The translations under genes were made by a program, and so were the position numbers. DNA of 64,000 bases from Nitrospirota bacterium (GTDB taxonomy: Bacteria > Nitrospirota > Nitrospiria > Nitrospirales > NS-4), in assembly GCA_005877615.1 (NCBI GenBank), contig VBOD01000106.1, positions 2,398 to 66,397 of the forward strand, written 5' to 3'. The first letter of the stretch is position 1. Every line of letters starts with the position of its first letter. Shown here one piece after another: positions 35 through 27,539 of this stretch. The notes under the pieces are model-generated. The model was given only the letters and a program-made list of their open reading frames with translations, did not search any database and had not been told where the DNA came from.

Positions 35-162
35 GGCTCACCTTTCCAAGAATTTCCGTATCTTACAGACCTGTCGCACACCGCGTCAACGACGGTCCTC
101 CTGCTTTCTTGACAGGGGGGGACCCCCATGTTAGCCTTTCTCACATATAAGGAGGCACTGCT

Positions 163-729
163 ATGAAGTTTCACGGCGATAAGACACTGATCCTGACGGT
201 GGTTGTCGCCACCGGGTCGTTTCTGCTGGCTGCCTGTTCAAGTGTTCCGAAATGGGTCGACAAGGGCGGCGGGTACATGACCGAGAAGGACGGCAAGGCC
301 TTCTACGGAGTCGGGGCCGTGACGGGGATCCGGAACGAGCCGCTGGCCAAAGAGACCGCCGACAACCGCGCCCGTGCCGACCTGGCCAAGTACATGGACA
401 CCTATACGTCCTATTTGATGCGCGACTACGCCGCGTCAACGACGGCCGGGGACTTCACGAAGACCAGCGAGGAACAGAACGTCGAGCGCGCCCTTAAGAC
501 CTTTGTCTCGACCCACCTCTCCGGCGTTCTGGTCGTGGACCGCTGGGAGAAGGATGATAAGACCGGCAAGATCATCTACTCGCTGGCCAAGCTGGACCTT
601 GACAAGTTCAAGGAACAGGTCGGGCAGATGAAGGAGCTCAACGATGCGGCGCGGGACTTTGTGCGGAAGAACGCCGAGAAGGCGTTCGAACGCCTGCAAC
701 AGGAGGAGGACAAACGTGGCGCCAAGTGA
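163..729 (+). CDS. LPP20/FlgP-family outer-membrane lipoprotein
   Basis: ORF-track 188 aa. AAGGAGG SD lies about 9 nt upstream of ATG 163. Signal peptide with lipobox LLAAC. The body (GVGAV...NRARADLAKY..., K/E-rich helical tail) reads like the LPP20 family. Confidence 0.75.
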   Translation: MKFHGDKTLILTVVVATGSFLLAACSSVPKWVDKGGGYMTEKDGKAFYGVGAVTGIRNEPLAKETADNRARADLAKYMDTYTSYLMRDYAASTTAGDFTKTSEEQNVERALKTFVSTHLSGVLVVDRWEKDDKTGKIIYSLAKLDLDKFKEQVGQMKELNDAARDFVRKNAEKAFERLQQEEDKRGAK

Positions 730-1345
730 CGGCCGGCCTCGCATCGGAACAGTCCTCCTGGGATGGGGCGCCGGAGCTTTCCTGCTTGCGTCCGCCGGCT
801 GCGCCTCCACCACTGTCACACGCGTGGATACAGCGTCTGTCACGGACCTGAGCGGCCACTGGAACGACGCTGACTCCCGGCTGGTCGCCGAGGAGATGGT
901 CAAGGAGGCCCTGTCCGGCCCCTGGCTCGATACCTACACCGGCGCGAACAAGCGACGCCCGGTGGTGGTCGTGGGGACGGTGGCCAACCGGAGCCACGAG
1001 CACATCAACGTGCAGACCTTCATCAACGACCTCCAGCGCGAGCTGACCAACTCAGGCAAGGTAACCTTCGTGGCCGGCAAAGGCGAGCGGGAAGAGGTCC
1101 GCGAAGAGCGCCGGGAGCAGGCCGCCAACGCCCTCGAGTCCACGCAGAAGCCGCCTGGCAAGGAAATCGGCGCCGACTACCTGCTGCGCGGCACGATCAG
1201 CACTATCCAGGATGAAGCCGACGGGACGAAGGCGATCTTCTACCAGGTCGATCTTGAGATGGTCGACCTCTCCAACAACGTCAAGTCTTGGTTCGGCCAG
1301 AAGAAGATCAAGAAGGTCGTGGAACGGAAGCGCGTCGTGTTCTGA
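716..1345 (+). CDS. LpoB/YcfM-like lipoprotein (penicillin-binding-protein-activator LpoB family fold)
   Basis: In-frame GTG at 716 sits 5 nt after the AGGAGGAGGA SD (701-710) and overlaps the upstream stop. This gives the signal peptide GTVLLGWGAGAFLLASAGC. PVVVVGTVANRS...ADYLLRGTIS...IFYQVDLEMVDL resembles LpoB-type proteins. The ORF-track start at 644 is judged too long. Confidence 0.65.
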   Translation: MAPSDGRPRIGTVLLGWGAGAFLLASAGCASTTVTRVDTASVTDLSGHWNDADSRLVAEEMVKEALSGPWLDTYTGANKRRPVVVVGTVANRSHEHINVQTFINDLQRELTNSGKVTFVAGKGEREEVREERREQAANALESTQKPPGKEIGADYLLRGTISTIQDEADGTKAIFYQVDLEMVDLSNNVKSWFGQKKIKKVVERKRVVF

Positions 1346-1359
1346 CGCGACGGTCCGGC

Positions 1360-2826
1360 TTGTTCAGACATTTCACACCTCCGTCCACGGGACGCTGGAG
1401 TCCCGTCCTCCTGGTTCTGCTTTCCGTCACCGCCGTATCCGCCTGCGCACACGAGCTTCCCTATGCGCGCATTGATCGTGCGCTCCAGGACGGCAATCCC
1501 GCTGAAGGAGTGGCCCTCCTTGAAACGGCTCAGGACATCTATGGAAGCAAGAGTACGGCGCTGTACCTCATGGACAAAGGGATGGTCCAGTACCTAGCCG
1601 GCCGCTACACCGACAGCATTCAGTCCCTGTCTGCCGCCGAGGCGCTGACCGAGGACCTCTATACCCGCCGCATCCGGTCCGAAGTCGAGGCCTTTCTCAC
1701 GTCGGACAACGCCCTGCCGTATGAGGGCGAGGAGTTCGAAAAGGTGCTGCTGAACGTCTTCCTGGCTATCGACTACGTCCATCTCGGGCAATGGAACGAC
1801 GCGCTTGTCGAGGCGCGCAAGGTGGACCACAAGCTTACTGTGCTGGCAGACCGAAATCAAAAGCGCATGACGTACACCCGTGACGCGCTCGCCCGCTATC
1901 TGAGCGGCATCCTCTACGAAGCCACCGGCGACCTGAGCAATGCCTTCGTCGCTTACCGGCTCGCGCTGGAGGCGTTCGAGGACTACCGGAAGAACTATAG
2001 CACCGCCGTGCCGGACCTCGTCCGTCAGGACCTGCTGCGCGTGTCCGAGGCACTCGGACTCAATCAGGAACACCAGGAGTACCAACAGTCCTTTCCGGGT
2101 CTTACGTGGCAATCGGAGGCGGCCTCAATGTCGGACGGTGAGCTGGTATTCGTCACCCACGCCGGCCGGGCGCCCATCAAGCGCGACCTCTTCGTGGATG
2201 TCCCGTTCAGCCCTGCCGCACTCGCCGTGGTCTTGGCCACAAAACGCTATGACAGGTACGATACGTACAATCATCGTGCGGCCGAGAGCATTCTCTATGG
2301 CCTGACGGGCAGGGTGATGAGGCTGGCAGTCCCCCAGTTTGTGCCACGACGCTCGATGATCGCGCACACAGAGGCGGTCATCCTGAGCGGGACCGCACGA
2401 TACACGGCGCGCGCGGCCTTGATGGAAGACATCACGGCGATCGCCATAAAGGACCTGGATGACCGTCTCCTCAGAACGACGGTCAAGGCAGTGGCGCGCG
2501 CGGCTTGGAAATTCGCCCTCGCGGAAGCTGTACGGGTTGGGGTGCGTAGTTCAATCAAGGACAAGGAAGCAGGTGCGGTTGCCGGCGCCCTCGCTGGCGC
2601 GGTGGCGCACATGATCGCCGTCGGATCGGAGGAAGCGGACAAGCGGAGCTGGGCAACCCTCCCGGACCGCATCTTCGTCGGGCGATTGAAGGTCCCGCCC
2701 GGAACCTACGACGTGGAACTGCGCCACATCGGGACCTACGGAGGTGTGGTGGCCACCCAGGTACTCAAGGGCATCACCATCACCGAACGTGGCAAGCACT
2801 TCGTCAGCACGCGAGTCCTGCAATGA
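1360..2826 (+). CDS. COG3014-like TPR-containing lipoprotein of unknown function
   Basis: 512-aa ORF. The only in-frame start after the upstream stop is TTG 1360, giving a signal peptide with lipobox VSAC. TPR-like helical repeats are followed by a C-terminal ADKRSWATLPDRIFVGRLKVPPGTYDVEL beta region. ATG 1288 would overlap the previous gene by 58 nt. Confidence 0.55.
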   Translation: MFRHFTPPSTGRWSPVLLVLLSVTAVSACAHELPYARIDRALQDGNPAEGVALLETAQDIYGSKSTALYLMDKGMVQYLAGRYTDSIQSLSAAEALTEDLYTRRIRSEVEAFLTSDNALPYEGEEFEKVLLNVFLAIDYVHLGQWNDALVEARKVDHKLTVLADRNQKRMTYTRDALARYLSGILYEATGDLSNAFVAYRLALEAFEDYRKNYSTAVPDLVRQDLLRVSEALGLNQEHQEYQQSFPGLTWQSEAASMSDGELVFVTHAGRAPIKRDLFVDVPFSPAALAVVLATKRYDRYDTYNHRAAESILYGLTGRVMRLAVPQFVPRRSMIAHTEAVILSGTARYTARAALMEDITAIAIKDLDDRLLRTTVKAVARAAWKFALAEAVRVGVRSSIKDKEAGAVAGALAGAVAHMIAVGSEEADKRSWATLPDRIFVGRLKVPPGTYDVELRHIGTYGGVVATQVLKGITITERGKHFVSTRVLQ

Positions 2827-3980
2827 ACGTAAATGTCATTCTGAGCGAAGCGAAGAATCTAGGCAGAACTGAGACCCTTCGAAAGCTCAGGGTGACAACT
2901 GTCATCTTTCTCGCACTGTTCCTATCCTTACCTTTCACAGGCTGCGCCGGAACCCCGAAGCCGCCGGACTGGGTCATCGGGGTGAAGACCGCCGGCTATC
3001 CGGACGAGCAGTTCCTGATCGGCGTCGGGCAGGCGGACTCCAGGCCGGTGGCGGAGGAGCGCGCCTACGCGGCAGTTTCCCGGATCTTCAAAGCGGAAGT
3101 GATCAGTCAGTCCCAGGATTGGGAGTCCTACCTGAGCCTGGAGAAGAAGGGGGATGTCCAGGCCGAGCGGAAACTGGTCGTGGACACGATGACAAAGGTG
3201 TCCACCGACAAGCTGCTGGAGAACGTGAAGATCGCCGAAACCTGGCAGGACGCGAAGACCGGTCTCTACTCTGCCTTGGCCGTCATGGATCGCGGAGTCG
3301 CCCGAATGTTGCTGTCAAGCCGGATCGCGGAACTGGACGAGGCGATCGCCCATGACGTGAAAGAGGCCCGCGCGGCGACGGACAAGCTCATGAGGATCCG
3401 AGGCCTCCGGCGCGCGATCCGGACCCACATCGTCCGGGACACCTACAACAGCGACCTGCGGGTCGTGAGCGGCGGCAGGGGAGTCCCGTCCGAGTACACT
3501 GTGCCAGGGCTGACGAGGGAGCTGGAAAAGTTCCTGCAAGAAAGCTTGATCTTAACGGTTGAAGTCCATGGAGACCAGGCCGATGCCGTGCGGCAGGCCA
3601 TCATGGAGGGGTTGGCGCGCGAAGGGCTGCCGGTGACCGCGACAAATTCTCAGCCGGCATCAGGGGAATTCGGCCACGCGGACCTGCTGATCAGAGGTGA
3701 GGCCCGCCTGTGGCCTATTGAGGTTCCGGACCCGAACTTTCGCTATGTTCGCTGGTGCGCGGACTTTGTCGTGCTGAGCCAAGGGGACCAGGGCATCGTC
3801 GGCAGCGTGGCCCGCTCAGGCCGAGAAGGCCACCTGAACTACCCGGAAGCCTCCAACCGTGCCCTCAAGTCCCTCCAGCAGGAAGTCTCCTCCGCCCTCG
3901 CCAAGAGCCTTGCTGAGCACATCTACGGCGACCCGCCCTCCGACTCCACTCCCGCCCCCGCAGCCTGTCCGAAGTCCTAG
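2823..3980 (+). CDS. LPP20-domain lipoprotein with a long C-terminal extension
   Basis: 385-aa ORF. ATG 2823 forms an ATGA overlap with the upstream stop. Lipobox LPFTGC. The N-terminal half (FLIGVGQADS...AEERAYAAVSRIFKAEV) is LPP20-like. An alternative GTG start at 2892 lies just after the palindromic element. Confidence 0.6.
   Translation: MNVNVILSEAKNLGRTETLRKLRVTTVIFLALFLSLPFTGCAGTPKPPDWVIGVKTAGYPDEQFLIGVGQADSRPVAEERAYAAVSRIFKAEVISQSQDWESYLSLEKKGDVQAERKLVVDTMTKVSTDKLLENVKIAETWQDAKTGLYSALAVMDRGVARMLLSSRIAELDEAIAHDVKEARAATDKLMRIRGLRRAIRTHIVRDTYNSDLRVVSGGRGVPSEYTVPGLTRELEKFLQESLILTVEVHGDQADAVRQAIMEGLAREGLPVTATNSQPASGEFGHADLLIRGEARLWPIEVPDPNFRYVRWCADFVVLSQGDQGIVGSVARSGREGHLNYPEASNRALKSLQQEVSSALAKSLAEHIYGDPPSDSTPAPAACPKS
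2835..2896. repeat. Imperfect palindromic miniature element (GTCATTCTGAGCGAAGCGAAG ... CTTCGAAAGCTCAGGGTGAC)
   Basis: The two arms are reverse complements with a few mismatches around a roughly 20-nt centre. The left arm translates as the VILSEAKNL peptide, which I recognise as a recurrent small repeat seen in many bacterial and metagenomic sequences. Confidence 0.55.
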
Positions 3981-3990
3981 GACAACAGAG

Positions 3991-3996
3991 TATAAT
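3991..3996 (+). promoter_or_regulatory. Perfect TATAAT hexamer 6 nt upstream of the slp-like start codon (possible leaderless transcript)
   Basis: TATAAT at 3991-3996 and ATG at 4003, with no SD between them. No good -35 (TCCGAA at 3968-3973). Confidence 0.2.
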
Positions 3997-4002
3997 TAAA
4001 CC

Positions 4003-4707
4003 ATGGACAGGAGCGCGGGCCTGGCTCTGATTGGGGTGTGTTGCCTCCTCGTGTCCGGGTGCGCGTCCTCTAGGCAAAATACCTTCCCGCTCGAATACCA
4101 GCTTCCGCCCGACTTGCAACGCCAGGTCGAGCAGCGGGTGTCTTTTGCCAATGTCAAAGCCGATCCGGCGGCCTATAAGGGTCGGATCATCTTACTGGGC
4201 GGTGAGGTGCTAAAGGCAAAACGGTTGGTAGACCGTACCAGACTCGAGATCCTTCACCTTCCACTCAACGAGTTTAATGAACCCGTCATGAACCGGACCG
4301 CCTCTCAAGGACGCTACCTAGCTTTCCAGAAGGAGTTTTTGGACCCTGCGACGGTGCCCCCTGGGACGCGCATCACGCTGGTAGGTGAAGTCATCGGCAC
4401 AACCGAGGGCGACCTCGATGACATGAAATACTCCTACGTGACCCTGGAGATCCGCCATCTTCAGATCTGGCCGCAGACGCCCATGCCTTACGCGAGAGAC
4501 TCGCCCTACACTCCCTTCTACTCCTATGCTTACACGTATCGTTACTGGGACCCCTACTGGGGCTTCTACTGGGAGCCGTATTGGCCCTATCCATATGGAT
4601 TCGGCGGTTCCTTCCTGCGACCCAGACTGCGGGGAAGTCACCCGCTATCAGCGAAGGGCCACTCGCATGCCCATGCCTCCGGATCTAAAGGGGGCAGGGG
4701 AAAGTAG
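4003..4707 (+). CDS. Slp-family outer-membrane lipoprotein with an aromatic-rich C-terminal tail
   Basis: 234 aa. Lipobox LLVSGC. The core (YKGRIILLGGEVLKAK...TRLEILHLPL...GRYLA...TLVGEV) matches the Slp/YeaY pattern. The tail from about residue 160 is a Y/W/P-rich low-complexity region. Confidence 0.7.
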   Translation: MDRSAGLALIGVCCLLVSGCASSRQNTFPLEYQLPPDLQRQVEQRVSFANVKADPAAYKGRIILLGGEVLKAKRLVDRTRLEILHLPLNEFNEPVMNRTASQGRYLAFQKEFLDPATVPPGTRITLVGEVIGTTEGDLDDMKYSYVTLEIRHLQIWPQTPMPYARDSPYTPFYSYAYTYRYWDPYWGFYWEPYWPYPYGFGGSFLRPRLRGSHPLSAKGHSHAHASGSKGGRGK

Positions 4708-4716
4708 CGGGGTCGT

Positions 4717-5805
4717 CTAAGCGGTCATCGGCGGCGGCGCCGACTCAGTCAGATATTCTTCGTGGTAGATCTGAAACGCAGTGAGCAGGATGGCGAGAAG
4801 GATTGGCCCGAGGAAGAGCCCGATCAGCCCATAGGCCGCTAAGCCGCCAAGGATACTGAAGAAGAGGAGGAGCACCGGCAGCTTGGCCCCTTTCCCGATG
4901 AGTATCGGCCTCAGCACGTTGTCCACCATCATCACCACGCCCACTCCCCAGGCAAGCATCGCGATCGCCTTCCACATGGGGCCGGTCCAGAACAGGTACA
5001 GCGCCACCGGCCCCCACACCAGCGCCGTGCCGCCGAAAGGCAGCGGGGCCAGGACGATCGTGAGCGCTGTCAAGAAAGCCGGGAAGGGCACGTCGAGGAC
5101 CGCATAGGCGAGGCCCGCGACCACTCCCTGTACAATTGCCGTGATCACGATTCCCTTGACCACCGCCGTGATGGTTTGATCCAGGCGTGAAAACATCCTG
5201 TCCTTGTGCGCCTTGTCGAGCGGAATCCCTCGGTAGACACTCAGGAACAGTCGTTTGCCGTCTTTGAAGAAAAAGAACAGCGCAATGACGATCACCAGAA
5301 AGTTGACGGCCAGCAGGAAGGCGTTTTTGACCAGGCCGGTCACCTGCTCGACGATGAACCCGCTCATAGCCTTCGCGCTTTGCAACAGGAAGGCTTCGAC
5401 GTGCGCCTTCGACCCGACGAGCTTATGGAGCATGTGCTGCATGCGACGCCCGCCCAGCAAGGGGAGCTTGGCCAGCTCGTCCGGCAAGCGCGTCACGCCG
5501 CCCGACTGCACCCAGGTATTGACAGCGTCGTAGCCGTTGCCAGCCTCCTGGACAAGCAGGAAGGTGAAAAAAACCACCGGCGCCACGATCAACGCAACGA
5601 TTCCCACTGTCAACAGCGCGGCCGACGCGACCTCGCGCCCTCGGAGCAGACTTGTCAGACGAGTGTGCAGGGGGAAGGTGACGTGGGCTAGGATCACCGC
5701 CCATAGCAGCGGGCGAAGAAACGGGCTGAAAACCTCGGCCAGCTGGTAGAGCAGAACAAGCAGCACCCCGAGGAAACCGAAGGCGAACAACCGCTGGCGC
5801 GTCAT
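4717..5805 (-). CDS. AI-2E family (PerM/YhhT-like) membrane transporter
   Basis: The internal ATG at 5805 (MTRQRLFAFGFLG...) gives 362 aa with multiple TM helices and the FFFFKDGKRL, VDNVLRPILIGKG and GLIGLFLGP signatures. The ATG overlaps the upstream gene's TGA (ATGA). The 73-codon N-terminal extension in the ORF track is rejected. Confidence 0.85.
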   Translation of the reverse strand: MTRQRLFAFGFLGVLLVLLYQLAEVFSPFLRPLLWAVILAHVTFPLHTRLTSLLRGREVASAALLTVGIVALIVAPVVFFTFLLVQEAGNGYDAVNTWVQSGGVTRLPDELAKLPLLGGRRMQHMLHKLVGSKAHVEAFLLQSAKAMSGFIVEQVTGLVKNAFLLAVNFLVIVIALFFFFKDGKRLFLSVYRGIPLDKAHKDRMFSRLDQTITAVVKGIVITAIVQGVVAGLAYAVLDVPFPAFLTALTIVLAPLPFGGTALVWGPVALYLFWTGPMWKAIAMLAWGVGVVMMVDNVLRPILIGKGAKLPVLLLFFSILGGLAAYGLIGLFLGPILLAILLTAFQIYHEEYLTESAPPPMTA

Positions 5806-6821
5806 CCGGAGCGCCTGGTGTACAAGGTGTCCTCTTCGAACATCGTGAAGAGCCGCTTGGCCTCTGGGTGCAGAACGGCTTGCGAGGGCGACGGCGGCAT
5901 GGTGACCGTCCGGAACAACGGCGTGAGCTTGCCGTTGGGATGGAGGTAGCCGGCCCGCAACGGGACCGATCGGTGCTGGTGGCGGACAAGGTGGCACGGC
6001 GTCGGGCGAATACTGGTCAGCCATGCGGCAAGCTCGTGCGGATTGCCTATCGAGGCCGAAAGCAGGAGCAGTCTGGCCTGGGAGGGGCAGAAGATGATCG
6101 TTTCTTCCCAGACGACCCCGCGCTCCGAGTCGCCCAGGAACTGGCTCTCATCGATGATGACGAGCCCAAGGGTATCCAGCCGGACATCGATCTCGCCCCC
6201 CGCCGCGTCATAGAGGAGGTTACGAAGTATTTCCGTCGTCATGATCAGGATCGGCGCGGTGGGGTTGTCGCGCCGGTCGCCGGTGATGATGCCGACGAAC
6301 TCCGGCCCGAAGATCTTGCAGAACTCGGTGTATTTCGTGTTCGACAGGGCCTTGAGCGGCGAAGTATAGACGACAGTCCGGTCCTCGTGCATGGCGCGGC
6401 GGGTCGCCTCCACGGCGACGTAGGTCTTGCCGCTGCCCGTGGGGACGCTTACGATCACGTCACCCCGTTCCAGTGCCTCTACCGCCTCCATCTGCCAATC
6501 ATCCGGCACGAAGGGGCGCGGCTCCGGCACCCCAATACCTTCCAGAAGCGCGCGCAGGTCAGCCGGCTTTCCCGGTTTGTGTTCGGAGGATGCCCCACCC
6601 CCCGACGCCGGGACTGCGGCCAACGCCTGCTGCTCGGCCTGATGGGTACGAATCGTCGCCTCGACGCGCGCGATGTTGGCTTCGGCACCCGCCATGATCG
6701 TGTGCATGAGCCGTCGCTTCCCCATCCGTAGCGCCGGGGGACCAGCGATGGAGCGCCCCAGCCGGCGCAGTAGCCGGAAGGGGAGATTGGCGAGCGCCCG
6801 TTCCAATTCGTCACGTGTCAC
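5802..6821 (-). CDS. Ski2/HelY-like helicase, RecA1 (DEAD-like N-terminal) half only
   Basis: GTG at 6821 overlaps the upstream TGA (GTGA). Contains Walker A PTGSGKT, SPLKALSNTKY, MTTEILRN, motif II as IIDESQ, and motif III SAS. It ends shortly after RSVPL. The ORF-track extension to 7283 lies inside the upstream gene. Confidence 0.8.
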   Translation of the reverse strand: MTRDELERALANLPFRLLRRLGRSIAGPPALRMGKRRLMHTIMAGAEANIARVEATIRTHQAEQQALAAVPASGGGASSEHKPGKPADLRALLEGIGVPEPRPFVPDDWQMEAVEALERGDVIVSVPTGSGKTYVAVEATRRAMHEDRTVVYTSPLKALSNTKYTEFCKIFGPEFVGIITGDRRDNPTAPILIMTTEILRNLLYDAAGGEIDVRLDTLGLVIIDESQFLGDSERGVVWEETIIFCPSQARLLLLSASIGNPHELAAWLTSIRPTPCHLVRHQHRSVPLRAGYLHPNGKLTPLFRTVTMPPSPSQAVLHPEAKRLFTMFEEDTLYTRRSG

Positions 6822-8674
6822 GGCAGTTCCTCTAACACGCCGCGCCGGATGCGGCTCAGGGCTTCCGCCGCCACTGTGGCCAGGTCCGGATGCGTGGCCT
6901 GCAGGGAATGGACTTGGGAGAGGTATTCGAGCGTGCGGGACAAGAGCCGATAGATATCGCCTTCGGCCATCGACGTGGTGCGGCAGAGCTGCGCCCAGGT
7001 CACAGTGGTGTCGCCCACCCAGCGCTCCGCCAACCCGCCGACATCGGCGCGCAGCAGCGGGGGATCGTCGTACGGAGCCAGCGCTTCCGTCATCCGGCGA
7101 GCCGTGGCCACGAGGCTTGCCAGCGCCCCGGTGATGCGCGGGAAGGAGTCCGGCCGATCGTTCTCGTAGGCGATGCAGGCCATCAGGCCCGCCAGCGTCG
7201 CGGGCGTGACATCTTTGAACGCCTGCGCGCGGATCAACTCGGTGATCAACAGCGAGAAGTCGATCCGGATCAGTCGGGCCCATTCGCCGTCCGCGGTCAG
7301 CTTGAAGGCAGCGTCCAGGTACCCGAGGTCCTGGAGGATCTCCGCGCGCTCTTGGAACTTATGCCAGAGCCCGGTGCGCAGCGACTGCACGGTCCGCGTG
7401 TGGTGCAGCCACTCCTGCTTCACCGTGTTGCCGGCCTTGAACTCCTTGGCGCAGGTCGGCCGGCAGGGGCAGGTGGGGCAGGGGAAGAGGTCGCCGAGAC
7501 TCTTCACCAGTTCGCCTTCTCCTTCGTCCGGTGCCGGTGGAACCGTCAGGAAGGGTAGGTGCTTCGGCAAGTCCTCAAGCTGCTGAGTCAGCCAGGACAA
7601 GGCCTCTGGGGCCGCCCAGGGGAAGGCCGGGGCCGGGGCGAAGTCAAAGGTGCGGTCGATCACGCCCATGATGTCCGCTACCGGCGACTCCGCCACCACG
7701 CCGCCCGTCCGGAGGACGGTCACCATCTCGTGGCGCTGGCCCCGGCTCCGGTAGCGCCGGAGCACAATCCCGCGGAACCGTGGAAAGGCCACGACCCGCC
7801 CGGGCGTGAGGTAAGGGAGCCGCGCCCGGACCTCCGGCGGATGGTGGCGCCGCGCATGGAGTTTCATGGCCGTCTGCCGCGTGGCCTGGTCGTAGGCGCT
7901 CCACTGCGTCAGCCAGTCAGAACACTCGCGTGGCTTGTAGGACTCCAGCTTCGCGTGCAGCTTCTCGATGCGGTGCTCCAGGTGGGCGGCCTGGGCGTTC
8001 ATCTGGTACTGCGCGAAGCTCTTCGCGAGGATAGACTGGATGTGGTCCAGCGGATGCGCCTTGAGCAGATTGAGGATCATCGGGTAGGCGATGATGAACT
8101 GGCTGTCCACGGGTTCGGGGCGGCCGGTGAGTCCGCGAATCAGGACGCCGAGGTCCATATATGGAGAAGGAGTGACGATGGCGAACCCCACGCTGTCCTT
8201 GCCGCGACGGCCCGCCCGCCCGGAAATCTGAGCCACCTCCGCAATCGTCAGGTCGGTGAAGTCCTGGTCGCGCCGCACGCCTGACTGCGTGAGCACGACG
8301 GTGCGCGCGGGAAAGTCCACGCCAGCCGCCAGGGTCGTTGTCGCAAAGACGGCGTCGAGGCACCCGCGACGCATCAGTTCTTCGATGGCGATTTTCCAGG
8401 ATGGGAGGTGTCCCGCGTGGTGGGCGGCCACGCCGCAGGTGGTCACCGTCTTCCGCAGCGGATGATCTTGCAGGCTCGGGTAGCTGGCGGTCAGCTCGTC
8501 CAGAACCGCTGTGATGCTCTCCTGGCGAGCGGGCGGCAAGGAGTCGGGCGCGTGTTCGAACGCCTGCAGCGCCTCGTCGCAGGACCGGCGGGACGTCAGA
8601 AAGACTATCGCGGGTGTCAGCGACTTCTGGCGCAGGACCGTGACGAGGTGAACCGGATGGATTGAAGGAGGCAT
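6818..8674 (-). CDS. Ski2/HelY-like helicase, RecA2 plus C-terminal (DSHCT-like) half
   Basis: 618 aa beginning at the RecA2 domain (LTPAIVFLTSRRSCDEA). Motifs GVAAHHAGHLP, FATTTLAAGVDFPA and QISGRAGRRG are present. Also has the Cys-rich FPCPTCPCRPTC and a DSHCT-like end (MACIAYE...WAQLCRTTSMAEGDIYRLLSRTLEYLSQV). Confidence 0.8.
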   Translation of the reverse strand: MPPSIHPVHLVTVLRQKSLTPAIVFLTSRRSCDEALQAFEHAPDSLPPARQESITAVLDELTASYPSLQDHPLRKTVTTCGVAAHHAGHLPSWKIAIEELMRRGCLDAVFATTTLAAGVDFPARTVVLTQSGVRRDQDFTDLTIAEVAQISGRAGRRGKDSVGFAIVTPSPYMDLGVLIRGLTGRPEPVDSQFIIAYPMILNLLKAHPLDHIQSILAKSFAQYQMNAQAAHLEHRIEKLHAKLESYKPRECSDWLTQWSAYDQATRQTAMKLHARRHHPPEVRARLPYLTPGRVVAFPRFRGIVLRRYRSRGQRHEMVTVLRTGGVVAESPVADIMGVIDRTFDFAPAPAFPWAAPEALSWLTQQLEDLPKHLPFLTVPPAPDEGEGELVKSLGDLFPCPTCPCRPTCAKEFKAGNTVKQEWLHHTRTVQSLRTGLWHKFQERAEILQDLGYLDAAFKLTADGEWARLIRIDFSLLITELIRAQAFKDVTPATLAGLMACIAYENDRPDSFPRITGALASLVATARRMTEALAPYDDPPLLRADVGGLAERWVGDTTVTWAQLCRTTSMAEGDIYRLLSRTLEYLSQVHSLQATHPDLATVAAEALSRIRRGVLEELP

Positions 8675-11498: not shown

Positions 11499-13373
11499 AT
11501 GCCAATGCTCTTGGACAGATTCAAGAACTTCAAGACCATGACCAAGCTGATGGTGGGATTCTCGATCATCGGCGTCGTCATCGCGATCGTGGGTTTCCTG
11601 GGGGTATTCGGCCTTCAACAGGTACGGGAGAAGCTCCGGGTCGTGTACGACAACTCAACGCAAAGCTTGGCCGCACTCGCTTCAGCCGCCAACAGCCTGG
11701 GTCTGTACCACGACTCGCTCCTCGAAGCCAGTCGGGCACGGACCAAAGTGGAGTTCGACGTCGTCGTCAAGCCTCTTGACACCCGGAAAAGCGGCACGCT
11801 CGAGCCGATCACGGGCCTGGCCGGCGGTCAGCTTCGGGTCTCCAAAAGCGGCCGGGACGAATCGAGAGACCAGCAGGCCCTCCAGGACGCCTTGAACGCT
11901 TACTTCAAGGCGGCCGACGGCGTACTGAGCACGGTGCAGGATAGTCTGAACCCGAACTACTCGGAAGAGCAACGCGAATTGTTCAAGGAACTGGCCGCTA
12001 CCTCTGTCACGACGGACGTGGCTTCTAGGTATTCAGACGCCACCAAAAAGCTCGGAGAGATGGTGATCTCCGCCCGCGAGGTCGCGAAAGACCTGAACGA
12101 CGAGGGTCAGGCGGTGGCGCGGAAGCAAACGATCTATGTCATCGGCGGCGCGTTCCTTGCCATCGTCTTGGGAGTGAGCTTCGGGTATCTGGTTGCCCGC
12201 TTCCTGGCGAAGGGCGTGACCCACATCGCGGAGGTCGCCATGCAGGCCGCCTCTGGGCGCCTCCAGGCGCGTGCCAAACTGGACACGGAGGACGAGCTGG
12301 GCCAGATGGCCAAGGCGTTCAATACCATGCTCGACCGGATCACCAGCTTGGTCCAGAGCGAAGCCGAACGCAAATCGATGCAGAAGCGCACGATGGAGTT
12401 CCTCAAGCTGGTGTCGGAAGTCAGCAAAGGGGACCTGACCCGGCGCGGCGAGGTGACCGCCGACATGTTCGGAAACCTAGCCGACGCGTTCAATCTCATG
12501 TTGGACCGGTTCAGCAAGCTGCTGGGCCAGGTGAACGAAGCCGCCGTCCGCGTCAACGAGTCCGCGCGAGGGATGCGGGGCATGGCCGGCCAGATGGCCA
12601 CGATGTCCCAGCAACAGGAGCAGGAATCCACGCAGACCCTGGCCGCCGTCGAAGGTCTGGCAACGGCCATGCGGCAGGTCGCCTCGACGGCGGGCACCTC
12701 CTCTGAAAGCGCCCAGCAGGCTCTGACCGCAACAGAGAAAGGCCGACTCGCCGTACAGGAAACCGTGCAAGGCATGCAGAGCATCCGGGCGGCAGTACAG
12801 CGCATGGCGAAACAGGTGAAAGGGCTGGGCGACCGCTCCCTGGAAATTTCACACATCGTGTCCACGATCCGAGAAATTGCCGCCCAGACAAATCTATTAG
12901 CGCTCAACGCCGCCATCGAGGCAGCCGGCGCCGGAGAGGCCGGCGCACGGTTCGCGGTCGTCGCCGACCAGGTGAGAAAACTTGCGGAAAGCACGACCCA
13001 GGCCGCCCGCGAAATCACCGACCTTGTGACGGTCATCCAGACGGAGACCCAGGCCACTGTCGTCGCGATGGAACAGGAAACTCAAGCCGTGGAAGCCGGG
13101 TCGGCGTCGGCCATGAAATCCGGCGACGTGTTCAAAGAGATTTCGGAGATCGCCAAGAAGTCCGCAGAGCTCGCGCAGACCATCGCGGAATCCTCCATGC
13201 AACAGACCGCCGCGACCGAAGGCGTGACGGAAGCGATTCACCGGTTCGCCACCGGCGCCAGCACGACCCGGAAAGCGGCCGAAGAAACGCGACACACGGT
13301 GGAAGACCTAGCCAAGCTGGCGGCAGGGTTGACGGCCTCGGTCGGTCAATTCAAGCTGGCGCAAGCCGCATAA
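11499..13373 (+). CDS. Methyl-accepting chemotaxis protein (PilJ-like: N-terminal helical sensor, TM, HAMP, signalling domain)
   Basis: 624 aa with an AAGGAGG SD. HAMP ([11 protein letters not shown]) and the highly conserved MCP hairpin region ([41 protein letters not shown]). Confidence 0.9.
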
Positions 13374-13414
13374 CCGCACCGAGAACGGTCTGACACCAGG
13401 CAGGCAGGAAAGCG

Positions 13415-16303
13415 ATGGCGTCCGATTTTGATCGACAGGCGCTGCTGAATATTTTCACCACCGAAGCCTCGGACGGCCTGCTCAAACTGGCCAATGCCTT
13501 GGACCCGAGGGACGGCTCGACGCCGACACAGGAGGCGTTGTGCGAGCACTTCATCATCGCCCACAGCTTGACTGGCGCCTCAGCTCTCTATGGGTTCACA
13601 GGCTGCGCCAGCCTGGCCAAGATCCTCGCCCGGATCCTCGAACAGGCAGGCACTGTGTCGCCGGCGGAATGGCCCGGCACCGTGACGATCCTGCGCGATA
13701 TCGTCACGATACTCACAGCCCAGATCGACAACATCAATCAGAAAAGCACGGAAGACCCCACCATTTTCGAGGACCTAAAAGCCCGTTACACCCACCTACT
13801 GAGGGAGTTCGAACCGACGCCGCCCAGCGCCGAGCCTGCACCGGAAGAAGCCTCGCTGCCAGACAGTTACTTCCGGCCGGACTTGGAAGCTGAAATCCTG
13901 GAGTACTTCGTTCCTGAAGCCCAGGAGTACTTGGAAGCCATTTCTTCCTGCCTGCTGCGAATGGAGAAGGATCCGGCAAACACGGACACGATCCACCAAT
14001 TGTTCCGTGCGGCGCATACCCTCAAGGGGTCCGCGTACACGGTCGGATTCCAGGCCATCGGGGATCTGACCCATCACCTGGAAGACATCATGGGCGCGAT
14101 CCGTGACGGGAAGATGCAGGTCACGGCAGAATTGACGGACCTGTTCTTCCACGCCGTGGATGAAGTCCGCCTCCTCCTGGGACGAGACCCGACCAAGCTG
14201 CCGCAGATCCGACAGGAGTTCTCGCCCCTCCAGCAACGACTCCAGCAGACGGCCGTCGGCCAGGCTGAGAAAGCGCCAGCCCCGCCCGTGGTCACGCCGA
14301 CGACCGCGCTCACAGAGACCAAGCCACGTCGCGAAGAGTTTCCCGTCGCGGATCCTGCGACGGCGGAGCCCCCAGCTCCGGCGGCCGCGGAACCGGTAAC
14401 ACTCCCGCAACCTGTCGGCGCGAAAGAGGTAAGCCAGGGAACAGTCCGGGTCAGCCGGGACCGTCTGGAGAGGCTGTTGAATCTGGTCGGCGAATTGGTC
14501 ATCGGGCGCGGCCGCTTGGAACAACGGTTGACGGTCCTCGAACAGTTGGCGCGCCAGGTACAGACGTATAAGAACCGGATGCTCGAAACGGTCCGGGCGT
14601 TTGAGCAGAAGCATGCCTTCACCTTGCCTGCGGCCACAGGCACCGGCGAGGGCAGCCAGTCTCCGCTCGGCCTGTCGGCCAACTTCGGCGCGCTCGAGTT
14701 CGACAAGTACGACGACTTCAACATCTTGGCGCGCCGCATGACCGAGGTATCGGCCGACGTCAGCGAGGTGATGGCCCAACTCAGCACCTCGATCCACAAA
14801 GCCCGCGAGGACATGGGCCTGATCCAGCAGATGACCACCGACCTGCGCGATGAGATTGCCCGTACCCGGATGGTCCCCATCGGCTCGCTGTTCACGCGGT
14901 TTCAGAAGGCGGTCCGCGAAATGGCGCGGACGGTCGGCAAGGACGTCGAGGTGGTCTTCTCCGGAGACAGCACCGAGGTGGACGCCGGAGTCGTCCAGCG
15001 GCTGGCCGAGCCGTTAATCCATATGATGCGGAACGCCGTGGCCCACGGCATCGAACCCCCGGCAGTCCGCAAGGCCGCCGGCAAGCCCGAGAAGGGCACG
15101 GTGTACCTCCACGCCTTCAACCAGCACAATACGATCGTGATCGAGATCGAGGATGATGGCGCTGGGCTGAACATCGAAAAGATCAAGGCGAAGGCGATCG
15201 CGTTGGGTCTGGTGCGCCCCGAGCGGGCCGCGGAGATGCCCTCCGCCGATTTGATCGAGCTGATCTACCTCCCGGGCTTCTCGACGTCGGAAGAAGTTGG
15301 CGATCAGGCGGGCCGTGGCATCGGCATGGACGTGATCAGACGCGCCGTCACCGACCTCAACGGGCAGATCGATATCGAAACCGAGCCTGGGGTCGGCACG
15401 AAATTCACCCTGACCCTCCCGCTCACCATGCTCATTTCAACCGCGCTGATGGTCCGGGCCGGAGACCAGCAGTACGCGATGCCGCTCCCCGCAATCCGGG
15501 AAGTCATCGTGCCGCCCCCCGGGGCCATGAATGACGTCAGCGGACGTGCCGTCCTGCAGATCGGAGAAGGGGAGGCCCTCGAAGTGTTCCCCCTCACGCT
15601 TTTGCTGGGAGTCGAGACGACGCCACGCGCAGGCCCTGTTCCGGTGGTGGTGCTCCGCACGCCCAAGGGCGTGGTGGGCATCGCGGTGGACGAACTGCTG
15701 GGCCTGCAAGAAATCGTCATCAAGACCCTCGGCTCGCTCAGGCTCTTTCAAGGCTCCTGCTACAGCGGGGCGACCATTGATCCGGAAGGCCGGGTCGTCC
15801 TGGTCGTGGATGTGCCCAGCCTGTTCAAACGGGAGGGCGAGAAGGCTTTCCCCGAGGTTCATCCGTTGCCTGAACCGCTGCGGTTGGAAGCGGCGGGAGG
15901 CCCCCAGGCCGAGCAGGAGAACGTCGGGATCCTCCTGGTCGACGACTCGCTGAGCGTCCGGAAATTTATCGGACGCATGCTGGAGGCGGCGGGCTACAAG
16001 GTGCAAACGGCCTCCGATGGCGAGGAAGGGCTACGAAAAGCCACCGCCACATCATTCCAGGTGATCATTGCAGACCTGGAAATGCCGAAAATGAACGGCT
16101 ATGAGCTCATCCAGTGCCTTCGCGACCGGCCCGAAACGAGGTCCACACCGATCATTGTGCTGACGACCCGGGCCGGCGAGAAGCACCGCCAGATGGCCCA
16201 GAGCCTGGGGGTTTCCTCGTACCTCACCAAGCCTGTCGAGGAACGGGCCCTCATCAAGGAGATCAGCCAGTTTGTGAGCGCACCCACAGCGGCGAAACCG
16301 TAA
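13415..16303 (+). CDS. cheA: Hybrid CheA/ChpA-like histidine kinase (2 Hpt, dimerisation, HATPase, CheW and REC domains)
   Basis: 962 aa. Hpt motifs AHSLTGASA and AHTLKGSAY. Kinase boxes HMMRNAVAHGIE, DDGAGL and GRGIGMDV. A CheW-like domain is followed by a C-terminal receiver (ILLVDDS...IIADLEMPKMNG...LTKP). Confidence 0.9.
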   Translation: MASDFDRQALLNIFTTEASDGLLKLANALDPRDGSTPTQEALCEHFIIAHSLTGASALYGFTGCASLAKILARILEQAGTVSPAEWPGTVTILRDIVTILTAQIDNINQKSTEDPTIFEDLKARYTHLLREFEPTPPSAEPAPEEASLPDSYFRPDLEAEILEYFVPEAQEYLEAISSCLLRMEKDPANTDTIHQLFRAAHTLKGSAYTVGFQAIGDLTHHLEDIMGAIRDGKMQVTAELTDLFFHAVDEVRLLLGRDPTKLPQIRQEFSPLQQRLQQTAVGQAEKAPAPPVVTPTTALTETKPRREEFPVADPATAEPPAPAAAEPVTLPQPVGAKEVSQGTVRVSRDRLERLLNLVGELVIGRGRLEQRLTVLEQLARQVQTYKNRMLETVRAFEQKHAFTLPAATGTGEGSQSPLGLSANFGALEFDKYDDFNILARRMTEVSADVSEVMAQLSTSIHKAREDMGLIQQMTTDLRDEIARTRMVPIGSLFTRFQKAVREMARTVGKDVEVVFSGDSTEVDAGVVQRLAEPLIHMMRNAVAHGIEPPAVRKAAGKPEKGTVYLHAFNQHNTIVIEIEDDGAGLNIEKIKAKAIALGLVRPERAAEMPSADLIELIYLPGFSTSEEVGDQAGRGIGMDVIRRAVTDLNGQIDIETEPGVGTKFTLTLPLTMLISTALMVRAGDQQYAMPLPAIREVIVPPPGAMNDVSGRAVLQIGEGEALEVFPLTLLLGVETTPRAGPVPVVVLRTPKGVVGIAVDELLGLQEIVIKTLGSLRLFQGSCYSGATIDPEGRVVLVVDVPSLFKREGEKAFPEVHPLPEPLRLEAAGGPQAEQENVGILLVDDSLSVRKFIGRMLEAAGYKVQTASDGEEGLRKATATSFQVIIADLEMPKMNGYELIQCLRDRPETRSTPIIVLTTRAGEKHRQMAQSLGVSSYLTKPVEERALIKEISQFVSAPTAAKP

Positions 16304-16324
16304 TCGCCGTGTAACGAGAGTCGC

Positions 16325-16879
16325 ATGAGCCTGCATGGCCAGAGCAAAGCCGCCGCAGCCGGTGGGGCGTTTGAACGTCTGCTGGTTGTCGCCAGCGGTC
16401 CGGTGAAGCTAGCGCTGCCAGCGCCGATCGTCCAAGGGATGCTGCCGCTGGGGGAGGCCGGAATCAAAGACGTCGCGACGGTCCGGGGAATCACATACCG
16501 CGTGACGTCTCTAGCCGGCCGGTGGGATGGGATGCCTTCCCCCGCGACGCCCAAGACGCTGTTACTCCTGTGCGAATACCGCGGGCAGCACCGCGGGTTC
16601 ACAGTAGACAAGGTGCTGGGTCTCATCGAAGTGGCCCCACGGCAGATCCGACTCTTGCCATCGCACTTTGCCTGCGAGGAACGGACGTGGTTCAACGGGT
16701 TCTTCCTGTTCCGGGGTACAATCGCCTTGTGGGTCAATCCTGACTGGCTGCTCGCGCCCAGCAAAGGCGCCGACGCGGCCGAGAACCTCGAGGACACCGC
16801 GCCGTGCATCACCGACGGCCCGTGTCTGACGGGAGACATCATAGAACTGGAAGTCATCGATGCTGAGAGGGCAGAGTAA
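16325..16879 (+). CDS. Divergent CheW-like domain protein
   Basis: 184 aa. The pattern RLLVVASGPVKLALPAPIVQGML...VDKVLGLIEVAPRQIRLLP...FNGFFLF follows the CheW-domain layout but is divergent. Confidence 0.6.
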   Translation: MSLHGQSKAAAAGGAFERLLVVASGPVKLALPAPIVQGMLPLGEAGIKDVATVRGITYRVTSLAGRWDGMPSPATPKTLLLLCEYRGQHRGFTVDKVLGLIEVAPRQIRLLPSHFACEERTWFNGFFLFRGTIALWVNPDWLLAPSKGADAAENLEDTAPCITDGPCLTGDIIELEVIDAERAE

Positions 16880-17318
16880 GGAAGCCCCAAAGCGTGTCAC
16901 GAACTGGTCACTGATTGTGCTTTCCATCGGCGGTCAGCGCCTCGCGGTTCGGACCGAAGAAGCCGGAGGCGTCCGGCCGTGGACCGACCCCATGCCGGTC
17001 CCGAGCCATACCCCGTTCGTGAACGCCCTCTTGCGGCATGATGAGGAAGTGCTTCCAGTCTACGATCTGGCCGCGCGGTTGAAGCAGCAGGCCCGTGGGA
17101 CGCCGCCGCTATGCCTGATTGCCAAACGGGAAGACGGGATGATGGCGGTGTGTATCGATGGCACCATCCCAACGCTCACGACGATTGATCCCCAGACGCT
17201 CCAGCCGTCCGCCGAACCCGCCCCCGATATCCTGGGATACTGCGTGATCGACGGGGAACACGTCCCGCTCTACTCGCTAGCCAAGCTGGGGCTGCCAACA
17301 ACGATTCATGCTGTATGA
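16860..17318 (+). CDS. Second divergent CheW-like domain protein
   Basis: 152 aa. SLIVLSIGGQRLAVRTEEAGGV...FVNALLRHDEEVLPVYDLAARL...ILGYCVIDGEHVPLYSL follows the CheW-domain layout. It overlaps the previous gene by 20 nt if ATG 16860 is used. Confidence 0.55.
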   Translation: MLRGQSKEAPKRVTNWSLIVLSIGGQRLAVRTEEAGGVRPWTDPMPVPSHTPFVNALLRHDEEVLPVYDLAARLKQQARGTPPLCLIAKREDGMMAVCIDGTIPTLTTIDPQTLQPSAEPAPDILGYCVIDGEHVPLYSLAKLGLPTTIHAV

Positions 17319-17330
17319 CGATGGAGGACC

Positions 17331-18011
17331 ATGCCGACAATCTTAGTTGCCGACGATAGTCTCAGCGTTCGAAAGGTCGCCGAACGGCAGTTGACCGAGG
17401 CCGGACTCGAAGTGGCCCTGGTGTCCAACGGCGAGGAAGCCTTGAAGTGGTTGAACAACAGGCGACCGGACCTGGTTATCGCGGACGTCATCATGCCGGA
17501 CAAGAGCGGGTTCGAGGTCTGCGCGTTCGTCAAGTCGAACGCCGCGCTGGCGGACACGCCGGTGATCCTGGTGTCCGGGTTCGTGGATGAGGAGGTCACG
17601 CGGCAGGCCGAGGCCTGCCACGCCGACCGGATTCTCAAGAAACCCTTCCAGGGGGCCGTTCTGCGCGAGCGAGTCCTCGAATTGCTGTCCGCTCGAAAAG
17701 CTCACACACCGCCGGCGTACGCCCCGGCGACGCCGGGTGAGGGCCTCGGCCGGGGGTTGCGTGACAGCACCACGCCAGCTATGCAGGCTTTGGAAAAGCG
17801 CCTGGCGGAACAGGAAAAGGCGCTGGGGCAGGCATCCATACTCATCAAGGACCTCGGGGGCCGGCTTGGAGAAGCCGCAACGCACACGGCCGAGCTGCAG
17901 AAACGGCTGGAGGCGCTGGAGCTGGCCGTCGCTTCGGCGGAAAAACTCCTGCAGATGCTGAGAGAATCCGTCCGCCAAGCCACGCAAACCTTGGGCCGAC
18001 GCGGACCATGA
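17331..18011 (+). CDS. Response regulator receiver domain with a C-terminal coiled-coil tail
   Basis: 226 aa. Complete REC (ILVADDS...LVIADVIMPDKSG...ILKKPF) followed by about 90 aa of heptad-like helical sequence (LEKRLAEQEKALGQ...LQKRLEALELAV). Confidence 0.85.
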   Translation: MPTILVADDSLSVRKVAERQLTEAGLEVALVSNGEEALKWLNNRRPDLVIADVIMPDKSGFEVCAFVKSNAALADTPVILVSGFVDEEVTRQAEACHADRILKKPFQGAVLRERVLELLSARKAHTPPAYAPATPGEGLGRGLRDSTTPAMQALEKRLAEQEKALGQASILIKDLGGRLGEAATHTAELQKRLEALELAVASAEKLLQMLRESVRQATQTLGRRGP

Positions 18012-18069
18012 CCGCCTTGCTCGCTCCGCCCGTTCGGCCGTCGGAAAACGAGGGGGACAAGCGATAGAA

Positions 18070-24409: not shown

Positions 24410-24416
24410 GCCTGCC

Positions 24417-25898: not shown

Positions 25899-25932
25899 TG
25901 GCTGACGTAGTTGAGCGTGGAAGAGAGGTGAC

Positions 25933-27528: not shown

Positions 27529-27539
27529 GGAGGCCAACG

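Follow-up and report, generated by a model that had tools for sequence, protein, structure and literature searches.

A conserved lipoprotein gene set built on an LpoB-like and a COG3014-family gene in a soil Nitrospirota genome

Introduction

What are five consecutive lipoprotein genes, four of them overlapping or closely spaced, doing together? They stand near the start of a 64,000-nucleotide stretch of DNA (contig VBOD01000106.1 of assembly GCA_005877615.1, positions 2,398 to 66,397; the window in what follows) that comes from a soil Nitrospirota metagenome-assembled genome (MAG). We call them g1 to g5 and write G1 to G4 for the families of the first four. Comparison across genomes gives a first answer: only g1 to g4 form a conserved unit, and its conserved core is the pair made of the LpoB-like g2 and the COG3014-family g3, not the LPP20-type g1 and g4.

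How outer-membrane lipoproteins organise the space that separates this membrane from the cell wall is well known for few model bacteria only, and the quartet provides a defined four-protein set for envelope biology. This kind of locus is known from Campylobacterota yet uncharacterised, and the one in the window is one of many alike. In our literature search, neither the LPP20-flanked quartet nor the breadth of the core pair was found described.

Results

Five lipoprotein genes in a row

The run and its ribosome-binding site are laid out as follows.

149..155, plus strand: Shine-Dalgarno sequence AAGGAGG, 7 nucleotides 5' of the g1 ATG, read from the sequence
163..729, plus strand: g1, 188 amino acids; LPP20-like domain and helical C-terminal tail; lipobox Cys25
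716..1345, plus strand: g2, 209 amino acids, GTG start; LpoB/YcfM-like (PF13036); lipobox Cys29
1360..2826, plus strand: g3, 488 amino acids, TTG start; COG3014 family; lipobox Cys29
2823..3980, plus strand: g4, 385 amino acids; N-terminal LPP20 domain and C-terminal part; lipobox Cys41
4003..4707, plus strand: g5, 234 amino acids; Slp family; lipobox Cys20

The initial annotation had described five plus-strand genes between 163 and 4707, each with a lipobox, and all of this is present in the sequence: LLAAC in g1 (cysteine codon 235-237), LASAGC in g2 (800-802), VSAC in g3 (1444-1446), FTGC in g4 (2943-2945) and VSGC in g5 (4060-4062). So are the two overlaps it reported: the GTG of g2 at 716 lies 14 nucleotides inside g1, whose stop occupies 727-729, and g3 and g4 share an ATGA at 2823-2826. 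A gap of 14 nucleotides separates g2 from g3. The NCBI entries TLY32072, TLY32073, TLY32075 and TLY32076 match proteins of the window exactly, and g3 corresponds to a 488-residue cluster. Three starts carry a caveat: for g2, NCBI uses ATG 644 (233 amino acids) and other gene callers GTG 716; for g3 a start at TTG 1288 is possible and database clusters use TTG 1360; and the start of g4 is uncertain owing to a palindromic element described below.

A PROSITE-like lipobox pattern matches four of the five genes, failing on g4 (Pro at -4), and only 4 of the 54 other called open reading frames (ORFs) of the window, one of which, carB, is a false positive. Because so few other ORFs match, and because the order of g1 to g4 recurs in distant phyla, the lipoprotein run goes beyond chance. 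The lipobox cysteine of g1 to g4 is invariant or at least 90% conserved in the family alignments. In E. coli, the Lol rule relates the residue at position +2 after this cysteine to lipoprotein sorting. None of the five proteins has Asp there, so that by the E. coli rule sorting to the outer membrane would be indicated.

A divergent intergenic region of ~120 nucleotides precedes g1, and the operon likely starts after it. A consensus scan found no plus-strand sigma-70 promoter, and promoter and terminator scans gave nothing above background.

The gene pair g2-g3 recurs across diderm phyla

We sampled at least 120 loci from species-representative genomes with a degenerate DNA pattern for the motif E..AD.RSW..LP of the g3 family; the 120 listed loci are those counted here. 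The sampled 8-kb blocks are not centred on the motif match and many loci end within their block, hence the counts use loci with enough flank. A g3 homologue is found in 117 of the 120 by phmmer and in all 120 by an iterated profile. Family profiles were built from the listed loci and then mapped onto them.

G2 adjoins G3 on the same strand in 36 of 37 loci with adequate flanks (at least 900 nucleotides upstream and at least 2500 downstream of G3), the exception being one Elusimicrobiota contig, and it lies directly upstream of G3 in 60 of the 77 loci with room. The hosts of this core pair belong to more than 15 diderm phyla: Planctomycetota, Poribacteria, Omnitrophota, Elusimicrobiota, Bacteroidota, Gemmatimonadota and Latescibacterota are among them, together with Verrucomicrobiota, Kiritimatiellia, SAR324, Desulfobacterota-type lineages, Nitrospirota and several classes of Proteobacteria.

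The flanking genes are rarer. Of 100 loci with room, 27 have a G4-type gene, with an LPP20 domain and a C-terminal part, directly after G3. Upstream of G2, a G1-type gene is present in 12 of 51 loci with room, and in 11 of the 15 among them that contain G4. The co-occurrence check proposed with the initial annotation therefore turned out positive for g1 to g4, in the listed loci and in near relatives alike. The full quartet is found in the same order in other Nitrospirota, Zooshikella, Halopseudomonas and other Gammaproteobacteria, in Desulfuromonadales, and in one Bacteroidota and one Elusimicrobia MAG, covering at least five phyla; gene order is kept, and so is the overlap of stop and start codons. 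Two relatives, with G4 identities of 64% and 55%, have retained the quartet together with the g1/g2 overlap and the overlap or abutment of g3 and g4; in both, an acetyl-CoA synthetase gene runs divergently ahead of G1. In a rough neighbour-joining tree of G3, gene architectures largely track clades.

The fifth gene of the run does not belong with them: a search for Slp homologues down to E<10 came back empty for all 120 loci, and downstream of G4 the same two relatives have dehydrogenase genes and no Slp. On this absence from listed loci and near relatives, we regard Slp as a neighbour and not as a member of the module. No gene 3' of G4 is conserved across the 120 loci, and clustering of their flanking genes revealed no recurrent partner beyond within-genus synteny.

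Could the genes nevertheless be unrelated lipoproteins that happen to stand side by side? The families can occur alone, as does the monocistronic hp0018 of Helicobacter pylori (PMC11394524), and Slp is indeed only a neighbour. Against this stand the G2-G3 adjacency in all but one of the adequately flanked loci and the quartet with its constant order and overlaps, and the synteny data largely refute a chance arrangement, which we consider scarcely credible. We hold it highly probable that g1 to g4 are a conserved operon for co-functioning outer-membrane lipoproteins.

g3 combines a TPR-like domain with a C-terminal half lacking a solved relative

The assignment of g3 to COG3014 comes from its match to a Colwellia psychrerythraea 'COG3014 family protein' (P0461; BLASTP 2e-28 over ~420 residues, hhalign 99.8%), this being the name given by NCBI and UniRef to the Colwellia members of the g3 family. 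There is no Pfam or NCBIfam model for the family, and g3 alone gives TPR matches only under the Pfam threshold. The family is large: a g3 profile search of 1.84 billion cluster representatives (50% identity) returned 6190 relatives at E<=1e-3, 1642 of them at E<=1e-30. Its near-invariant motif, [TS]E.AD.RSW..LP..I, appears in g3 as E..AD.RSW..LP at residues 424-435, with D427, R429 and W431 strictly invariant.

An AlphaFold2 model of g3 from a 145-sequence alignment is confident (predicted local distance difference test, pLDDT, 91.6; predicted template modelling score, pTM, 0.89). The tether is short, the first confident helix beginning at residue 35 after Cys29. A TPR-like helical domain spans residues ~35-244; the C-terminal half (250-488) consists of a beta region (260-357), a long helical hairpin (358-422), just past which the invariant residues are located, and four final strands (437-486) that look like a beta-sandwich. 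Modelled alone, residues 250-488 reach pLDDT 93 and pTM 0.83.

Foldseek of the whole model against the PDB retrieved only generic TPR proteins, over the N-terminal half. For the C-terminal half it found no fold match (best E 0.09, template modelling score 0.19), the best hits covering ~55 residues of Ig-like or starch-binding sandwiches, and the family profile has no sequence match in the PDB. With a confident model and no solved relative, this half is a reasonable structural target. PADLOC gave no defence-system match; a COG3014 protein is listed in a preprint among predictors of phage-host range.

One COG3014 representative of 645 amino acids (P0208) departs from the usual layout: it has a non-lipoprotein signal peptide and a ~170-residue C-terminal extension ending in ...LGVTYKF. 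This extension resembles the C-terminal signature of outer-membrane beta-barrels, to judge from its sequence, and might anchor the protein in the membrane in another way; it has no Pfam match.

g2 is LpoB-like but probably no LpoB orthologue

Over its whole length, the PF13036 (LpoB) profile is matched by g2 at 139.1 bits (gathering score 22.3, E 1.3e-40), and NCBI labels the protein 'penicillin-binding protein activator LpoB'. Against the LpoB equivalog TIGR02722, however, it scores 92.2 bits, under the cut-off of 110.55. The G2 family profile aligns with E. coli LpoB over 103 columns (hhalign 83%, E 8.5e-6), while searches with the single sequence and with the profile reach the solved LpoB chains only at E 0.14-0.5. 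The G2 family is thus only distantly related to enterobacterial LpoB.

The second difference lies in the tether. The family has a conserved motif, DLSGxWNDxDS, which in G2 relatives falls within 15 residues of the cysteine. In g2, Cys29 is followed after 5-7 residues by the conserved V34 and R36 and from residue 44 by DLSGHWND, with no Pro-rich linker; E. coli LpoB in contrast has ~56 Pro/Gln/Glu-rich residues between Cys20 and the domain start HYDWNG. Because of the score under the equivalog cut-off and the missing ~56-residue linker, g2 is in all probability not an LpoB orthologue, and reading it as an activator of a penicillin-binding protein (PBP) seems unwarranted. The initial annotation had mentioned that LpoB-type proteins act on peptidoglycan synthases, which should not be carried over to g2.

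If g2 were nonetheless a true LpoB, the cluster would be a peptidoglycan-synthase activator spanning the cell wall to a PBP1B-type enzyme. E. coli LpoB acts on a peptidoglycan synthase, and CpoB, a TPR protein, modulates PBP1B-LpoB. The strong PF13036 match, the NCBI label and the profile relationship speak in the same sense, as does the position of E. coli lpoB beside ycfL, which is related to the third gene of an alternative architecture described below. On the other side are the equivalog score, the poor matches to solved chains and a fold that begins 5-15 residues past the anchor versus the 56-residue linker of E. coli; with a tether this short, g2 would be unable to span the periplasm as E. 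coli LpoB does. Moreover, this family and its COG3014 partner are spread over many phyla, whereas to our knowledge UB2H-bearing PBP1B and LpoB are confined to some Gammaproteobacteria, and the scanned ORFs of the window include no PBP gene. We consider a true LpoB unlikely, and 'LpoB' labels outside enterobacteria are probably misleading on function.

The sequence pattern of g2 is one typical for CsgG/LpoB-like lipoproteins and includes a weak DUF3280 match. Might g2 form an oligomeric ring at the outer membrane, as CsgG or PelC do, and together with the TPR protein provide a route of polymer or protein export? A precedent exists in PelB, a TPR protein, and PelC, a ring-forming lipoprotein, and the barrel-like ...YKF end of the P0208 extension would suit such a route. 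Yet none of the listed loci has a glycosyltransferase, secretion ATPase, porin or substrate gene next to the module, Pfam is blind to the P0208 extension, and the confident g3 model contains no barrel. An export function is, in our estimate, very unlikely.

g4 carries an LPP20 domain and g1 is LPP20-like

For g4 the LPP20 assignment (PF02169) is direct: residues 48-156 match the full profile at 35.6 bits (gathering 25.9, E 1.3e-8), and the G4 family profile matches, with its N-terminal domain only, the PDB entry 4kzs, an 'LPP20 lipofamily protein' that we take to be HP1454 (E 4e-5). A helical middle and a C-terminal part of ~220 residues follow the LPP20 domain. The latter has no Pfam family and no sequence match in the PDB, and hhalign against the G2 and LPP20 profiles gave insignificant scores.

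With 20.5 bits (E 6.6e-4), g1 stays under the same gathering score of 25.9. Its orthologues at the same gene position in Zooshikella and Halopseudomonas exceed it (27.3 and 30.7 bits), and the G1 family profile aligns with the N-terminal domain of G4 at 99.4% (hhalign, E 5e-22), in a comparison that used position-defined sequence sets so that the profiles did not share sequences. A G1 profile search of the PDB did not reach the Lpp20 structure 5OK8. Judged by these sequence relationships, g1 can be called LPP20-like. The family assignments of the initial annotation are therefore right, since Pfam (LpoB, 139 bits; Slp, 126 bits; LPP20 above gathering for g4), BLASTP (COG3014, 2e-28) and profile-profile evidence (g1, hhalign 99.4%) agree.

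Both proteins would be accessory subunits, and both are closely anchored: Cys25 of g1 is followed by the invariant P29 and W31, with the folded domain 4 residues past the cysteine, and Cys41 of g4 by the invariant P48 and W50, with the domain 7 residues past it.

The LPP20 fold is common to the disk formers FlgP and FlgT (PMC11756786), from which one may ask whether g1 and g4 build a FlgP-like disk, the cluster being a flagellar motor accessory placed away from flagellar genes. HP1456 of H. pylori binds FapH and FlgP (PMC11756786), HP0018 tracks with sheathed flagella in Helicobacter (PMC11394524), and a chemotaxis cluster stands 7-15 kb away in the window. But deletion of HP1456 leaves the motor the same as in the wild type, and FlgP owes its position well below the outer membrane to a long unstructured N-terminus (PMC11756786) that g1 and g4 do not have. 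The absence of flagellar and PBP genes nearby, noted initially, holds for the scanned ORFs of the window, which contain no flagellar structural gene and no linkage of FlgP type (flgQ, flgO, flgT, pflA etc.); the chemotaxis cluster is at 11.5-19 kb. Across the 120 loci no family recurs beside the module, and the core pair is abundant in Planctomycetota, Poribacteria and others with no link to motility genes. A flagellar role is hardly likely.

An alternative architecture leads to Campylobacterota

In 15 listed loci the order is G3-DUF1425-G2. They come from Latescibacterota, Pseudoalteromonas, Colwellia, Methylobacter, Magnetococcales, Burkholderiales, Verrucomicrobiota and Kiritimatiellia. The small middle gene encodes a DUF1425/YcfL lipoprotein (PF07233, E 1e-27), found only in these 15 loci and not in the window. 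Its family profile matches the PDB entries 3o0l (1e-19) and 4GIO (6.7e-8), the latter being Cj0090 of Campylobacter jejuni (PMC7857515). A homology search seeded with the COG3014 proteins of the alternative-order loci returned only Colwellia-like proteins.

Two further variations were seen in these loci. In Pseudoalteromonas and Colwellia (L077, L103, L113, L119), a small Gly-rich lipoprotein (...GALIGGVIGNQFGGGSG...) is encoded 3' of the LpoB-like gene; its sequence seems to resemble the glycine-zipper YcfJ type, and E. coli ycfJ is located a few genes downstream of ycfL-lpoB. In Victivallales, Verrucomicrobiota and Kiritimatiellae (L015, L064, L105), one or two extra genes lie between G3 and DUF1425. 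Their products have ~370-390 amino acids and a signal peptide, one example reading ...FVQNRAGAPLEG..DAF.D.L...L...GF.V..., and Pfam gave nothing for 194 residues from the N-terminus of one such protein.

The C. jejuni operon cj0089-cj0090-cj0091 encodes a TPR lipoprotein of 453 amino acids, a lipoprotein of 122 and one of 207, the last with a domain once labelled 'SpaP-like'; Cj0091 associates with the outer membrane, and adherence and early colonisation depend on it (Oakland et al. 2011, PMC3100323). In H. pylori, HP0018 is described as the Cj0089 homologue and HP1457 as an LpoB homologue and Cj0091 orthologue, hp0018 and hp1457 being syntenic in enterohepatic Helicobacter (PMC11394524). HP0018 forms foci and co-immunoprecipitates with AmiA and MltD, and its deletion leads to chains of outer-membrane vesicles and to lost or reduced helical shape (PMC11394524). 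HP1457 flanks lpp20/HP1456 (PMC12029599); HP1454, whose first domain is Lpp20-like (PMC11756786), and HP1456 are in one operon adjoining HP1457 (PMC11756786, PMC12029599).

A palindromic element at the g3/g4 junction

One further element overlaps the quartet.

2834..2897, no strand assigned: palindromic element of 64 nucleotides, with 13-nucleotide inverted arms at 2834-2846 and 2885-2897

It makes up codons 5-25 of g4, which read VILSEAKNL...LRVT in frame and belong to the n-region of the signal peptide. As RNA it folds into a hairpin of -31.1 kcal/mol (z -4.8). It has one copy in the window and no Rfam family. Its 23-nucleotide core CATTCTGAGCGAAGCGAAGAATC is found in at least 120 unrelated metagenome contigs with GC contents of 30-70%, often with a partial inverted copy 40-55 nucleotides away, and none of the contigs listed carries the lipoprotein module. 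The element sits at the same spot in some G4 relatives and is absent from others, one of which (L122) still has an ATGA-type g3/g4 overlap. Because such relatives do without it, GTG 2892 is an alternative start for g4.

Slp and the rest of the window

The neighbouring g5 is a clear member of the Slp family (PF03843; 125.6 bits, gathering 22.5, E 1.4e-36), although it scores 76 bits against a cut-off of 88.45 for TIGR00752. It begins 22 nucleotides after g4. A perfect TATAAT at 3991-3996, 7 nucleotides 5' of its ATG, and no obvious Shine-Dalgarno sequence hint at a promoter of its own and possibly a leaderless transcript. Unusually, residues ~165-205 form a tail rich in Trp, Tyr and Pro (...YSYAYTYRYWDPYWGFYWEPYWPYPYGF...), after which the protein closes with a basic His/Gly/Lys stretch.

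Past g5 come an AI-2E transporter, two helicase halves and the chemotaxis cluster, and farther along a complex-I/hydrogenase-like module, pyrimidine genes, proteases and a two-component system. The helicase, on the minus strand at 5802-8674, is Ski2-like and encoded by two overlapping ORFs with swapped domain order: the upstream one (8674 to 6818) carries Helicase_C, an MTR4-like stalk and DSHCT, the downstream one (7283 to 5802) the DEAD/RecA1 domain that usually stands at the front. A gene pair that is split and permuted, a rearrangement or an assembly artefact may account for this. The chemotaxis cluster (11499-19134) comprises a methyl-accepting chemotaxis protein, a CheA-CheY hybrid, three CheW-domain proteins and an Hpt protein. 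The complex-I/membrane-bound-hydrogenase-like module (20743-28049) has two Proton_antipo_M proteins, NADHdh, a fused 30-kDa/49-kDa subunit and a 20-kDa subunit.

Discussion

A lipoprotein complex close to the outer membrane?

Overall we incline towards a complex of lipoproteins that hugs the outer membrane and serves envelope maintenance, a reading for which the balance is slightly favourable. Its ancient core would be g2 and g3, with the TPR domain of g3 as the likely docking platform and its C-terminal domain, without solved counterpart, carrying the invariant E..AD.RSW..LP. g1 and g4 would flank this core, in the place where other lineages seem to use DUF1425/YcfL. In all four mature proteins the conserved fold is predicted to begin within ~4-15 residues of the acylated cysteine, and these short tethers suggest an assembly directly beneath the outer membrane, in contrast to E. 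coli LpoB and FlgP, which act at a distance via long linkers.

What the complex would do is a more delicate question. It may keep the interface between outer membrane and cell wall, preventing blebbing and/or locally controlling peptidoglycan-remodelling enzymes, as suggested by the HP0018 phenotype, the role of Cj0091 and the action of E. coli LpoB on its synthase. Such a specific role in envelope maintenance or peptidoglycan remodelling is plausible, and we put it forward tentatively. The self-contained assembly that was initially proposed stands in so far as the quartet is conserved; it is not without precedent, which is found in cj0089-91, HP0018 and HP1454/HP1456/HP1457, studied piecemeal.

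Several points weigh against an envelope-maintenance complex. Fusions of G3 with G1, G2 or G4 are absent among 149 representatives, and in no listed locus is a peptidoglycan-enzyme gene linked to the module. For complex formation by g1 to g4 the argument is one from gene organisation and tether length. The outer-membrane location is deduced through the E. coli rule, and Lol sorting in Nitrospirota may follow other rules. The homology of g3 to Cj0089 and HP0018 is indirect, drawn from the family name COG3014, the gene order in the operons, the protein sizes and the connection through Cj0090, as the Campylobacter and Helicobacter equivalences come from comparison by description and not by sequence. 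Finally, mutant phenotypes in Campylobacterota are mild, null or different between genes: the HP1456 deletion shows no motility, barrier or motor phenotype (PMC11756786), and the cj0089 mutant has no adhesion or colonisation defect (PMC11394524).

Taken together, the observations also allow a bolder and rather doubtful proposal, to which we give a minor but real chance. The core pair would represent the ancestral centre of a lipoprotein machine, overlooked so far, that lies close against the inner leaflet of the outer membrane in most diderm phyla. Enterobacterial LpoB would be derived from it by losing the COG3014 partner, keeping YcfL and gaining a long linker; the LPP20 subunits would form a FlgP-like ring or lattice independent of flagella, and the C-terminal D-x-R-x-W domain of COG3014 would couple the outer membrane to cell-wall remodelling. 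The module in this way suggests a hypothesis on the origin of LpoB.

Comparison with known systems

FlgP and FlgT share the fold of the LPP20 domain (PMC11756786), which g4 carries and which g1 resembles, but g1 and g4 have neither a flagellar gene context nor the long N-terminal linker.

The C. jejuni operon cj0089-91 is matched in order and sizes by the 15 listed loci of alternative architecture, whose DUF1425 profile also matches Cj0090. The window differs from it: there is no DUF1425 gene, LPP20 genes flank the core, and the LpoB-like gene comes first.

For H. pylori each of the four genes has an apparent counterpart by description: HP1456 for g1, HP1457 for g2, HP0018 for g3 and HP1454 for g4. 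There, however, the set is split over two loci, whereas in the window the genes follow one another directly and their stops and starts overlap; HP1454 is described as a secreted protein, while g4 bears a lipobox; and the H. pylori proteins interact with FapH and FlgP, whereas the window offers no flagellar link. The Nitrospirota quartet looks like a contiguous version of a set whose members lie dispersed in the H. pylori genome.

In E. coli MG1655, ycfL (DUF1425) stands directly upstream of lpoB, and PF13036 is common to LpoB and g2. No COG3014 gene adjoins this pair, and LpoB has a disordered linker of 56 residues that is missing in g2. The pair looks like a remnant of a COG3014-DUF1425-LpoB-like triad. 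Altogether, cj0089-91, HP0018 with the Lpp20 locus, and ycfL-lpoB of E. coli would be fragments or variants of one widespread module, which the window displays as four contiguous genes.

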